A DNA stretch of 64,000 bases from Escherichia phage JN02. The stretch lies in the sequence record MT782071.1. One strand, 5' to 3'. The notes under the pieces were generated by a model. It saw nothing but the letters and a program-made list of their open reading frames with translations. It searched no databases and had not been told where the DNA came from. A program made the position numbers and the translations under genes. Below, in pieces: positions 38,155 to 42,269 of this stretch. Each line of letters begins with the position of its first letter. Position 1 is the stretch's first letter.

Positions 38155-38736
38155 TTATTCACCACAAAAGTTTCGGATTTGTTCCCAATTCAGAGAACGA
38201 AGATTATTACGAGAGTACTGAATTACTTCAATACCGGCTTGTTTTAGAATGTCTGCCCAATTTTCAGGAGATCGATCGTATAATTCTGCATATACAACCT
38301 TTTTAATACCTGACTGCGTAATAGCTTTAGTGCAATCAGGACATGGAGAAAGCGTCGTATATAACGTAGCGCCTTCAATAGAATTACCTTTACGAGCTGC
38401 AAACAAAATTGCATTCAGTTCCGCATGGATTTCATTATTAGCAGACCATGCACTATGAGCGGCCCGAGGTTCTTTAGCCAAAACAAAATTATCTATCCGT
38501 CCAAATGCTGTAGTGCCTTCTTTATGTCCAGCAACTATGACCGGGCTTGGTTTATTCTTCAACCAACCATTTTCGGATGCATGTTCACAACAGTTAACAC
38601 CACCGGCTGGTGAGCCATTATATCCAGTAGAGATAATGCGCCCATCTTTTTCAATGACGGCACCAACTTTCCATGAACAACATTTTGATTCTTGAGAAAT
38701 CAGATATGCAATCTGAAGGTATGTGCTAGCTTTCAT
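38155..38736 (-). CDS. cd: dCMP deaminase
   Basis: 193 aa, same as T4 Cd; zinc motifs HAELNA and PCPDC. Confidence 0.95.
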   Translation of the reverse strand: MKASTYLQIAYLISQESKCCSWKVGAVIEKDGRIISTGYNGSPAGGVNCCEHASENGWLKNKPSPVIVAGHKEGTTAFGRIDNFVLAKEPRAAHSAWSANNEIHAELNAILFAARKGNSIEGATLYTTLSPCPDCTKAITQSGIKKVVYAELYDRSPENWADILKQAGIEVIQYSRNNLRSLNWEQIRNFCGE

Positions 38737-39728
38737 TATTGAACCTTATTAATATGAGTTAACAGCTCTTTAGTTTGTTCCCAACTGATGCACGCATCGG
38801 TAACGGAAACGCCATAGGACATATTATCAGAAATTTTTTGATTTCCTTCATGTAGGAATGATTCTATCATAATTCCTTTGACCAAATCATTAGCTGCTAA
38901 ATTTTTACCAATACCAATTTGATTGCTATAATGCCCATCAGCGTTTGCATGGCTACAGTCAACCATTACATAATGATTCAGACCTACTGCCCTTGCTTTG
39001 TTAGAAGCTTCTTGAATATCAGAAGAATGATAGTTCGGGCCGTTGGTCCCGCCACGCAATACGATATGCGTATTCTGATTACCTTCAGCTTCAACAATGC
39101 CTACAGTACCATCGACGTCCATACCCATATACCGATGAGGCCAGGCGGCACTATACATCGCGTCTGTAGCTACTTTAATAGAACCATTGGTTGCGTTCTT
39201 GAAGCCTACGCACATCGGTAGACCTGAAGCAATTTCACGATGTGTCTGACTTTCAGTCGTACGGGCGCCAATAGCAACCCATGAGAAAATACCAGAAAGA
39301 TACTTAATCGTGAATGGGTCTAATACTTCAGTTGCTAATGGAAGTCCCATACGTAGAAGTTTACGACACAATGTTCGTGCAACTATAAGACCGTGGTTCA
39401 TATCAAAACTTCCGTCAAGATATGGATCATTTACAAGACCTTTCCAACCTACGGTAGTTCGAGGCTTTTCAAAATAAACGCGCATCACTAACAGAACATT
39501 AGGAAGACGAGTTTGAAGTTCAGCCAGACGTTTGCCGTATTCAACAGCAGCAATAGGGTCATGAATTGAACAAGGACCTACAACAATAAGTTTGCGTGGG
39601 TCTTCACCATTCATAATCGAATTAACTTGTTCACGATGAGAAGCCACTTGTGATGCGTAAGCTTCCGACAAAGGAATAATCTCAGCCAGTTCTTTTGGAG
39701 AAATAAGTTTTCCGACGACAGGTAACAT
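38736..39728 (-). CDS. aroG: 3-deoxy-D-arabino-heptulosonate-7-phosphate (DAHP) synthase, class I (AroG/AroF/AroH-like)
   Basis: 330 aa; conserved LIVVGPCSIHD, MRVYFEKPRTTVGWKGL, GARTTESQTHRE, HIVLRGG, ESFLHEGNQ, TDACISWE align with E. coli AroG; stop overlaps the cd start (TAATG). Confidence 0.9.
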   Translation of the reverse strand: MLPVVGKLISPKELAEIIPLSEAYASQVASHREQVNSIMNGEDPRKLIVVGPCSIHDPIAAVEYGKRLAELQTRLPNVLLVMRVYFEKPRTTVGWKGLVNDPYLDGSFDMNHGLIVARTLCRKLLRMGLPLATEVLDPFTIKYLSGIFSWVAIGARTTESQTHREIASGLPMCVGFKNATNGSIKVATDAMYSAAWPHRYMGMDVDGTVGIVEAEGNQNTHIVLRGGTNGPNYHSSDIQEASNKARAVGLNHYVMVDCSHANADGHYSNQIGIGKNLAANDLVKGIMIESFLHEGNQKISDNMSYGVSVTDACISWEQTKELLTHINKVQ

Positions 39729-39848
39729 AACAATCCTTAGGAGATATAAACAGATTCTGATTCAACAATACCTTTAACCCGATTAGACAGGCTAAGTTGG
39801 TAGTGCTCAGATTTATGACCATTCTCGATAGTAATGAGATAGCTCTCA

Positions 39849-40085
39849 TTATAGTGTTCCATATACTCGAGTTGCTTCAACAAGACCATCACTGCCTAAT
39901 TTAAGATTAGTAATTTGGTCACCATCTTTAGGATTAACGATTATGAGAAAAGAACGTGGAGATTCTTGAATAACTCGTAATGTTGCATCTTGGAAACGTT
40001 CAGACACTTTATTGATGAGTGCTTGAGCAAATTCTTTTACTTTAATCTGAAATTCGTGTACTGTAATTGGGTTTTCACTTAGCAT
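39849..40085 (-). CDS. hypothetical protein (78 aa)
   Basis: GAGGA RBS; early promoter upstream. Confidence 0.5.
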   Translation of the reverse strand: MLSENPITVHEFQIKVKEFAQALINKVSERFQDATLRVIQESPRSFLIIVNPKDGDQITNLKLGSDGLVEATRVYGTL

Positions 40086-40113
40086 TTCTATTTCCTCATT
40101 TGTTGGTAGAGTT

Positions 40114-40143
40114 ATAGTATCACAACTCCACCGTGTTGTAAAC
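40114..40143 (-). promoter_or_regulatory. T4 early-type promoter (GTTTACA, 18 nt, TGaTACTAT)
   Basis: Minus-strand aGTTTACAacacggtggagttgTGATACTATaac. Confidence 0.55.
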
Positions 40144-40145
40144 TA

Positions 40146-40421
40146 TTAAATTGCTTTGCATTCAATTTTTTGTGTACCGAAATTGATATCACATTGGATA
40201 ACTAAATCGCCGTCAAGATCAAATACCACTATGACGTGTGCAGACCCAGGGAGAAGAGTAATAGCAATAGAATCTACTTGGTCTGGGAGCAAAGCATTGA
40301 GTACATGAGTTAGTTGAGCATGAACTCTGAGTTCGGCTGCATTATCAAGCACTTCAAACATATTATTAGCAATAATCTGACTGAAGACTACCTTTACAAT
40401 TTCAGAATAAGTTGGGAACAT
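40146..40421 (-). CDS. hypothetical protein (91 aa)
   Basis: ORF in the co-directional early cluster. Confidence 0.45.
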   Translation of the reverse strand: MFPTYSEIVKVVFSQIIANNMFEVLDNAAELRVHAQLTHVLNALLPDQVDSIAITLLPGSAHVIVVFDLDGDLVIQCDINFGTQKIECKAI

Positions 40422-40428
40422 AATTACC

Positions 40429-40653
40429 TCAGTGTACAGTATTTACTTTAACTCGAACAACAAATCGCTCGGTCGGTTCACCTACAGGAACAAACTCTAC
40501 ATGATATTCACCTTTGTAACGAGTATTCAGATCATTACGAATTCCTGCGAGTTTGTTGATTAATGTAGGACTCATATTAAGTCCCACTAGTTTACGAAGC
40601 ATTTTGTATGCTTCATCTTCGATTTCATGATGTTTATCGTACATAGTTTTCAT
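40429..40653 (-). CDS. hypothetical protein (74 aa)
   Basis: ORF in the co-directional early cluster. Confidence 0.45.
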   Translation of the reverse strand: MKTMYDKHHEIEDEAYKMLRKLVGLNMSPTLINKLAGIRNDLNTRYKGEYHVEFVPVGEPTERFVVRVKVNTVH

Positions 40654-40824
40654 TTAACCATTCAATTGCCTGGTCGACGTTATCAAATATACCGCCATCC
40701 AACCATTCTTCATGTTCATAGTCCAGCACATCAATACCGAACCGTCCATTTACTAAAGGCCATACTACAAACAAATATTCTTTATGCTGTTCGATGGCCT
40801 CAATCACTTCATATAATCGTTTCA

Positions 40825-40825
<1 letters not shown>
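40634..40825 (-). CDS. hypothetical protein (63 aa)
   Basis: ATG overlaps the pseT stop (TAATG). Confidence 0.45.
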
Positions 40826-41911
<1,086 letters not shown>

Positions 41912-41912
<1 letters not shown>

Positions 41913-42211
41913 TATTTTATTCCTAAGAAAGTTTCAAGAATACGAATGTTATGCTCGCGCCGGTCTTTATTAATTTCAGCAACGTTTTTATTAATTGACT
42001 TACTTCTAACGTTTGAAGAAATAAATTTAATCATATGACTTTTGAGTTGTTGTAAATCCAACCCTTTTTCTTTAGCAGCTTTACGAAGAGCTTTACCAGC
42101 TTCATCTAGTGCCTTTGCTGCATCTTTGTCATAATTGGCAAGTGACATTCCGCGGCAGATATCAATATACTCATCAGACCGTTTGATGTAATTCTCTAGT
42201 AATGTTTTCAT
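41912..42211 (-). CDS. hypothetical protein (99 aa)
   Basis: GAGGA RBS; consensus-like early promoter upstream. Confidence 0.5.
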
Positions 42212-42239
42212 TTAGATTTCCTCAATTATCCATAGGAGC

Positions 42240-42269
42240 ATTATACTCTGCTCCCGAGAGTTTGTAAAC
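42240..42269 (-). promoter_or_regulatory. T4 early-type promoter (GTTTACA, 18 nt, TATAAT)
   Basis: Minus-strand GTTTACAaactctcgggagcagagTATAATgct. Confidence 0.6.

Follow-up and report, generated by a model that had tools for sequence, protein, structure and literature searches.

Four small genes between pseT and a DAHP synthase gene of Escherichia phage JN02 belong to the conserved cd-pseT early block of T-even phages and include a candidate host-strain-specific factor

The closest described relatives of the genes considered here were the cd.2, cd.3 and cd.4 genes of bacteriophage T4. All three were listed as early at the RNA level, and their products were classified as early (cd.2) or middle (cd.3 and cd.4) proteins (PMC9697503 supplement). 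Knock-down of T4 cd.1-cd.5 by CRISPRi-ART gave scores near 0 and the call 'Not Fit' (PMC11879866 supplement). In the HIDEN-SEQ data, T4 tolerated insertions at 18 of 19, 20 of 20 and 17 of 17 TA sites of cd.2, cd.3 and cd.4, respectively, and the corresponding genes of phage Bas37 tolerated them at nearly every TA site (bioRxiv 10.1101/2025.11.20.689424). Thus, the T4 orthologues of these genes were dispensable on laboratory E. coli. The main texts of this literature did not mention the cd.x genes or their families, and the information came solely from supplementary tables. Here we describe the homologous locus in a stretch of 64,000 nucleotides (nt) from Escherichia phage JN02 (MT782071.1; the whole stretch is referred to as the window), where four small open reading frames (ORFs) occupied positions 39,729-40,825 between a DAHP synthase gene and pseT.

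Two other described systems were close to this locus. One was the PeSL cassette of T4-type phages, in which, according to Arbiol et al. 2010 (PMC2839356), an early promoter with a stem-loop overlapping its -10 box was followed by a ribosome-binding site and an ATG; these stem-loops were shown there to terminate upstream transcription. The other was T4 NrdC.1, a reported anti-Septu factor that, like T4 cd.4, was encoded by a small early ORF, was dispensable in K-12 and was depleted on the clinical strain CFE299. NrdC.1 had a matched defence system in the HIDEN-SEQ preprint whereas Cd.4 had none, and the two sequences were unrelated.

Identity and conservation of the four genes

In a PHROG profile search, each of the four ORFs matched one PHROG with E-values of 1e-33 to 1e-41. 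The product of 63 amino acids (aa) matched phrog_2360 over residues 1-63 (E 2.1e-33) and was 52% identical to T4 Cd.4 (NP_049832) over its full length (E 1e-25); its relatives had a precomputed PF26883 match. The 91-aa product scored 119.4 bits with Pfam DUF7355 (profile positions 1-91 of 93) and was 79% identical to T4 Cd.3 (NP_049831), which was also 91 aa long. The 78-aa product scored 121.5 bits with DUF7320 and was 65% identical to T4 Cd.2 (NP_049830); the gathering threshold of both Pfam families was 27 bits. The CRISPRi-ART supplement listed T4 cd.2, cd.3 and cd.4 as phrog_1504, phrog_1695 and phrog_2360 (PMC11879866). Since the 78-, 91- and 63-aa products fell into the same three PHROGs, they represented the same families. 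The remaining 74-aa product (phrog_3609, E 3.5e-41) was 100% identical to RB69ORF227c (AAP76126), a protein with no counterpart in T4.

The RB69 record gave the annotated order pseT, cd.4, RB69ORF227c, cd.3, cd.2, cd, and all four genes were named in the notes of the PhAPEC2 record. On these comparisons, the identity of the locus was settled: it was the Mosigvirus version of the early cd-pseT block that T-even phages conserve, and its four genes were already known by name from the RB69 genome of 2003. The first-pass annotation, which was made from the sequence alone, had called the ORFs unrecognised. The profile searches that it had proposed corrected this, placing all four in PHROGs and the 91- and 78-aa products also in Pfam DUF families. 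Phage records with a match to the 1.1-kb stretch itself numbered 155, and in 150 of these at least 80% of the stretch was covered. The best-matching records (99.5% identity) were the Mosigvirus isolates phi25-307, HX01, ST0 and APCEc01, and by this similarity the window came from a Mosigvirus, an RB69-like T-even phage. The features of the locus were as follows.

40825..41724, minus strand: pseT (polynucleotide kinase/phosphatase), upstream context, 74% identical to T4 PseT
40634..40825, minus strand: cd.4 homologue, 63 aa, phrog_2360, matching T4 Cd.4
40429..40653, minus strand: RB69ORF227c homologue, 74 aa from the first ATG, phrog_3609, matching RB69
40146..40421, minus strand: cd.3 homologue, 91 aa, DUF7355, phrog_1695
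40086..40145, minus strand: PeSL-type intergenic cassette, predicted from promoter scan, homology and fold
39849..40085, minus strand: cd.2 homologue, 78 aa, first gene 3' of the PeSL promoter, DUF7320, phrog_1504
39737..39862, minus strand: putative scar ORF of 41 aa, phrog_15876, partial DUF7320
38740..39839, minus strand: cassette of 1.1 kb with the scar ORF and the DAHP synthase gene, missing in RB69, direct repeats at its edges
38736-39728, minus strand: DAHP synthase gene, inside the cassette
42205..42268, minus strand: predicted upstream promoter, 11 of 12 promoter positions matched, with a fold

Several structural statements of the first-pass annotation were confirmed. The four co-directional ORFs of 63, 74, 91 and 78 aa lay on the minus strand at the positions it had given, the same strand that carried every gene in this part of the window, and the overlap of the pseT stop with the start of the cd.4 homologue (TAATG) was seen in the sequence. 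Their description as small early genes was judged to be correct. For the 74-aa ORF, it was the second ATG (40644) that was conserved as the start, an ATG that overlapped the cd.4 stop and gave a product of 71 aa. An additional 41-aa ORF (39737-39862), overlooked earlier and annotated in most GenBank records, occupied the stretch left unassigned next to the DAHP synthase gene. ORF length by itself did not establish a gene here, as the antisense strand likewise had ORFs reaching 77 aa; neither these nor the alternative-frame ORFs at the locus had a family match.

T4 Cd.4 and the 63-aa product were alike in size, in acidity and in position downstream of pseT, but in T4 the cd.5 gene separated pseT from cd.4 whereas here cd.4 overlapped the pseT stop directly. 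Cd.3 showed no material difference between the two phages, and its gene was followed by the same promoter/stem-loop element. In both phages cd.2 was the first gene 3' of the early promoter, named Pe133295 in T4 and represented by its homologue here. After cd.2, T4 had cd.1, whereas the window had a truncated foreign copy of cd.2 and the DAHP synthase gene. The 74-aa product did not differ from RB69ORF227c, and its gene was in the same place between cd.4 and cd.3; the family was missing from T4 and other Tequatrovirus.

By tblastn, Cd.3 was detected in 911 phage records, Cd.2 in 793 and Cd.4 in 686, once in each. The RB69ORF227c family was present in 337 records, which belonged to Mosigvirus, Dhakavirus, Gaprivervirus-like phages, Gelderlandvirus, Karamvirus, Marfavirus, Mosugukvirus and a Serratia phage. 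We compared gene order in 25 loci from 8 genera. The order of all four genes was identical in Mosigvirus and Dhakavirus, and most of the four kept their order in Tequatrovirus, Gelderlandvirus, Karamvirus, Marfavirus and Mosugukvirus. In these tables cd.4 followed pseT, either directly or after cd.5, and preceded cd.3 or ORF227c. PG7, Marfavirus and PM2 kept pseT and had no detectable cd.4. The first-pass annotation had described the array as variable and as the most accessory-looking stretch of the region. The comparison across T4-like genomes that it had suggested showed instead a conserved order and not a lineage-specific array: the four genes were syntenic across these genera and occurred as single copies in 337-911 records, and the variable parts were slots between them.

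Three such slots were found. The one between pseT and cd.4 contained cd.5 in T4, S16 and PG7 and was empty here. The one directly 3' of the cd.3/cd.2 promoter was occupied in T2-like Tequatrovirus by an ORF of 175 aa and in JS98 by orf212 (185 aa). The one between cd.2 and cd held cd.1 in T4, was empty in RB69 and PM2, and contained DAHP synthase both here and in Marfavirus. In our set of loci, the 175-185-aa ORF slot was at positions 3839-4366 of L005-L007 and 3565-4119 of L017 (JS98, Dhakavirus), and T4, RB69 and the window had none; in L004 the ORF was split into two pieces.

The ratio of nonsynonymous to synonymous divergence (dN/dS), computed against 15-20 other phages, was 0.05-0.3 for the four genes in most comparisons, rising to 0.5 for the most distant phages; pseT and cd lay in the same range. 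By gene, the values were 0.12-0.5 for cd.4, 0.06-0.27 for ORF227c and 0.06-0.47 for cd.2. Thus, by homology and selection, and not by ORF length or promoter hexamers, the four genes were judged to be real and under purifying selection. It should be added that Cd.3 of the Mosigvirus phages NHEP29 and SF (locus position ~1745-2023) was 66-67% identical to that of the window while the adjacent Cd.2 was 99-100% identical. Such a pattern resembled the exchange of an allele at a single small gene.

Candidate host-strain dependence of Cd.4 and the proposed action of the four proteins

One of the four families had a phenotype outside the laboratory hosts. On the uropathogenic strain CFE299, T4 cd.4 insertions showed a log2 fold change (log2FC) of -2.93 (adjusted p 0.00000), and cd.4 was one of 11 significant genes on this strain, alongside pseT, cef and nrdC.1. 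Its neighbours in the same experiment were at +0.06 (cd.5), -0.30 (cd.3), -0.01 (cd.2) and -5.27 (pseT). The Bas37 gene at the cd.4 position was at -2.26 on CFE299 (p 0.010), and Bas37 PseT was at -1.90 (adjusted p 0). On CFE336, the cd.4-position gene of Bas37 was at +0.28 and PseT at -7.58, and on CFT073 the two values were +0.12 and -0.13. The neutrality on CFE336 and CFT073 indicated that the requirement for Cd.4 was strain-specific and was decoupled from the requirement for PseT. The preprint authors deleted candidate anti-defence genes with log2FC < -2 and tested them against cloned defence systems, and a deletion construct for the cd.4-position gene of Bas37 was listed among theirs (all data from bioRxiv 10.1101/2025.11.20.689424). 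On this analysis Cd.4 was a candidate host-strain-specific counter-defence factor. A mildly negative effect was also recorded for the Bas37 gene at the Cd.3 position, with -1.03 on CFE299 and -1.18 on CFE336 (p 0.053; bioRxiv 10.1101/2025.11.20.689424).

By sequence comparison, the four proteins themselves belonged to four unrelated, phage-only families. The products of cd.4 (isoelectric point 4.3, net charge -9) and cd.3 (isoelectric point 4.45) were acidic. AlphaFold predicted ORF227c with a mean confidence (pLDDT) of 88 as two helices and a beta-hairpin, and Cd.3, modelled with 16 diverse sequences, with a pLDDT of 92 as two helices packed on a four-stranded sheet. According to these models, ORF227c and Cd.3 were small helix-plus-sheet domains lacking a catalytic signature; of the structure prediction that the first-pass annotation had proposed, confident small folds were obtained for these two, and no enzyme signature emerged. 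NCBIfam and PADLOC searches gave no match for any of the four proteins, and PDB sequence and profile searches found no relative of any of them. No homology to a characterised anti-defence protein appeared through PDB, Pfam and NCBIfam, which are general libraries, none of them dedicated to anti-defence.

In an exhaustive search, the true relatives of Cd.3 were solely phage-sized proteins of ~91 aa. Among the longer matches (644-5168 aa), the two inspected (P0065 and P0074) were spurious, being eukaryote-like and internally repetitive proteins with scores summed over weak repeats, which we took to be RhoGAP-type. The two-helix, four-strand folds of IraD, gp25-like and Tctex-type proteins and the N-terminal domain of inositol monophosphatase shared only 5-13% identity with Cd.3, a likeness at the level of the fold. 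The metal-binding motif of inositol monophosphatase is DPIDGT. Cd.3 as an inositol monophosphatase was rejected, as it had no conserved metal-binding motif, and the DLDGD of the window protein was GLDAE in T4. For ORF227c, two metagenomic relatives, P0010 (98 aa) and P0013 (72 aa), had a precomputed PF03484 match and were probably chimeric gene calls on short contigs.

Taking these data together, we favoured, with somewhat better than even confidence, the view that the locus was a conserved early block of small early proteins acting by binding, with Cd.4 being specific to certain host strains. In such a scheme, each of the four proteins would bind a host or phage macromolecule stoichiometrically and non-enzymatically, and the four would pay off only in particular hosts. 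Cd.4 would neutralise a factor of strains like CFE299, probably an immunity component, and would not be a helper of PseT. Several points weighed against this view. None of the four proteins had a known binding partner or target, no phenotype was seen for Cd.2 and Cd.3, ORF227c was outside the screens, and the structural models covered two of the four proteins (ORF227c and Cd.3). The Cd.4 phenotype came from the supplementary tables of a preprint whose main text was silent on cd.4, and the preprint reported no matching defence system for the cd.4-position gene. The Bas37 result on CFE299 was not significant after correction (adjusted p 0.31; bioRxiv 10.1101/2025.11.20.689424). Moreover, bas37_0053 was a putative Cd.4 orthologue, assigned by its position in the gene order and by an annotated length of 201 nt. 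The window Cd.4 was only 52% identical to T4 Cd.4, and the strain-specific phenotype was one measured in T4 and, nominally, in Bas37. Finally, the promoter and attenuator activities in this phage were predicted from homology and folding.

We weighed four other explanations. The idea that Cd.4, and perhaps ORF227c and Cd.3, were accessory subunits assisting PseT/RnlA RNA repair, with Cd.2 assisting dCMP deaminase and the dNTP-synthesising complex, was attractive because of the conserved adjacency and the translational coupling of cd.4 to pseT, and a role of Cd.4 as a PseT cofactor was raised by the depletion of both T4 genes on CFE299 (-5.27 for pseT and -2.93 for cd.4). However, it was weakened by CFE336, where PseT of Bas37 was indispensable (-7.58) and the cd.4-position gene neutral (+0.28). 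In addition, cd.5 was between pseT and cd.4 in T4 and S16, pseT was kept in PG7, Marfavirus and PM2, which had no detectable cd.4, and disruption of cd.2 had no effect where cd trended negative (T4 on CFE299). Thus, we regarded accessory subunits as unlikely. A similarly low probability was given to the possibility that the four genes were diverged tandem paralogues of one helix-plus-sheet ancestor, acting on related targets. ORF227c and Cd.3 did share the order of elements, two helices and then strands, a weak match to a DUF7355 protein (probability 0.87, template modelling score 0.50) emerged when viral models were searched with ORF227c by Foldseek, and the 41-aa ORF was really Cd.2-like. 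Nevertheless, all-against-all hhalign comparison, repeated with deeper alignments, revealed no relationship: profile-profile probabilities between all the families were 0.1-4.7%, and only the 97-102-aa position-equivalents in S16, PG7 and phage 4S joined Cd.3 (91.5%). Two helices with an antiparallel sheet are, besides, a very common small fold.

The first-pass annotation had read the locus as an array of novel genes for host takeover or anti-defence, variable and lineage-specific, and tied to DAHP synthase. Small early genes in a region with insertion slots and the strain-specific requirement for cd.4 were in line with it, but the four genes were syntenic, single-copy and old, being known from hundreds of phages and from RB69 and PM2, which lack DAHP synthase; the cassette boundary was downstream of cd.2; dS values excluded a recent acquisition of the four genes; and T4 Cd.2 and Cd.3 had no host-specific effect. 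This account was therefore very improbable, and its anti-defence element stayed plausible for cd.4 only, on the T4 data. The case that the annotation itself had named as its refutation, namely conserved and dispensable homologues of T4 cd.x, was essentially what CRISPRi-ART and HIDEN-SEQ described. Equally little credence was given to functionless conserved ORFs or spacers that persisted through their linkage with pseT and cd, or were required as RNA only. Two screens on laboratory hosts had found no fitness effect, and Pfam, NCBIfam and PADLOC recognised no functional domain, but dN/dS was 0.05-0.3 over saturated synonymous divergence, equal to that of the flanking enzymes, the T4 proteins had been detected, ORF227c and Cd.3 had confident predicted folds, Rfam gave no match, and cd.4 had a conditional phenotype. 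A true remnant, the 41-aa ORF, behaved differently, with four nonsynonymous differences to one synonymous and a frameshifted allele.

Within the favoured view of binding proteins, a bolder and clearly more tentative version could be proposed. The Cd.4 family, including the window protein, might be a dedicated inhibitor of an immunity factor that is found in uropathogenic E. coli such as CFE299 and lies outside the RNA-damage pathway against which PseT acts, and ORF227c, Cd.3 and Cd.2 might be analogous binders for unsampled hosts. If so, an immunity inhibitor would be conserved in about 690 sequenced T-even phages. As originally posed, the finding was an ordinary one, in which conserved hypothetical genes were described again. 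What was gained was the separation of old conserved genes from the mobile parts, namely the DAHP synthase cassette with its cd.2 scar, and the insertion slot that follows the promoter/stem-loop. Among the four genes, cd.4 stood out because it was significant on the clinical strain CFE299 and was not discussed in the text of the preprint. RB69ORF227c was the least studied since the model phages T4 and Bas37 did not have the gene, and for the same reason no screen covered it.

The promoter/stem-loop element and the predicted transcription units

The intergenic region between cd.3 and cd.2 contained a sigma-70-type promoter with the -35 box GTTTACA at 40143-40137, a 17-nt spacer and the -10 box TACTAT at 40119-40114 with a TG upstream of it, and then a ribosome-binding site (GAGGA at 40097-40093) followed by the cd.2 ATG. 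A promoter scan of the region gave 13 promoter-like sites with 13.1 expected from shuffled sequence, and hexamer matches alone were thus unconvincing because their number equalled that expected by chance. However, the intergenic region was 88% identical to the T4 region with the annotated early promoter Pe133295, and the promoter, the stem-loop and the ribosome-binding site were conserved across four genera. The early promoter that the first-pass annotation had placed at 40143-40114 before the 78-aa gene was upheld by this homology and conservation. A 12-bp hairpin at 40105-40132 enclosed the -10 box (-16 kcal/mol, z -5.45). In an alignment of 8 phages from four genera, its stem was paired in 89.6% of cells and three pairs were changed on both sides, as in GAG/CTC of T4 versus GGAC/GTCC of JS98. 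An Rfam search gave no match.

Judged by its layout, the element was a PeSL-type promoter/stem-loop. The same layout was described for the PeSL cassettes of T4-type phages in the accessible parts of Arbiol et al. 2010 (PMC2839356) and Comeau et al. 2014 (PMC4122927). Slots next to the present element had gene insertions in related phages, with extra ORFs directly 3' of it in JS98 and T2-like phages. The PeSLs described in these parts came from RB49/phi1, PST and nt-1, and the cd.3/cd.2 element was not among them; its stem was also not of the G-run/C-run type reported for RB49.

The predicted upstream promoter at 42205-42268 had GTTTACA, 17 nt and TATAAT with a 7-bp GC-rich stem around the -10 box, and its ribosome-binding-site block recurred in the cd.2 leader (repeat D7). 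It probably drove two small ORFs and then pseT, cd.4, ORF227c and cd.3. The genes from 42211 to 40146 overlapped or were at most 8 nt apart. Since their starts and stops overlapped or were within ~8 nt of each other, cd.4, ORF227c and cd.3 would be read through from this early promoter and translated by coupling; the coupling of pseT to the 63-aa gene, proposed earlier from the TAATG overlap, was accepted as probable on the same overlap. The stem-loop 3' of cd.3 would attenuate the upstream transcript, and the promoter embedded in it would restart transcription for a second unit, running from cd.2 through the scar ORF and the DAHP synthase gene to cd. The two small ORFs 5' of pseT corresponded to RB69ORF231c (41912-42211) and RB69ORF230c (41721-41912). 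Neither was present in T4, and the first of the pair had 65-69% identical relatives in other Tequatrovirus loci.

The DAHP synthase cassette and the 41-aa ORF

The cassette next to cd.2 was bordered by a 13-nt direct repeat, ATAATGARAGCTA, at 39840-39852 and 38727-38739, which consisted of the cd.2 stop overlapping the cd start and three further codons. Homology to RB69, which had no cassette, ended at 39840 and resumed at 38739, exactly at the repeats. The first-pass annotation had linked the four genes to the acquired DAHP synthase. This link was not sustained: the edge of the cassette was downstream of cd.2, so that none of the four had arrived with the DAHP synthase gene, and the genes were also found in the DAHP-synthase-free phages RB69 and PM2. 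Synonymous divergence (dS) of the cassette between Mosigvirus isolates was ~0.01, compared to 0.1-0.3 for flanking genes in the same phage pairs, which suggested that the cassette had recently spread horizontally among phages of this genus. A 67% identical DAHP synthase occupied the same slot in the Klebsiella Marfavirus phage AmPh_EK29.

The 41-aa ORF had its own phrog_15876 match and scored 29.3 bits with DUF7320, covering profile positions 44-76 only, as would a fragment. Its codons 1-6 were derived from the resident cd.2/cd junction in another frame, and the remaining 35 codons were the C-terminus of a foreign Cd.2. The sequence SYLITIE...SVY was common to this ORF and the Marfavirus Cd.2, and its closest full-length relative was in Pectobacterium phage PM2 (54% identity); no full-length close donor was found in the database. 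The nonsynonymous and synonymous differences quoted above were those among isolates, and the frameshifted allele, with a 2-nt insertion, was that of phage GADS24 (L026). Rather than a fifth functional gene, the ORF was therefore taken to be a putative recombination scar that had arrived together with the DAHP synthase gene.

At the other end of the block, pseT of Serratia phage 4S was annotated as two coding sequences (1025-1360 and 1409-1921; locus 1025-1921), and the window PseT aligned across both by tblastn. This split may reflect a frameshift, an intervening sequence or a sequencing error.

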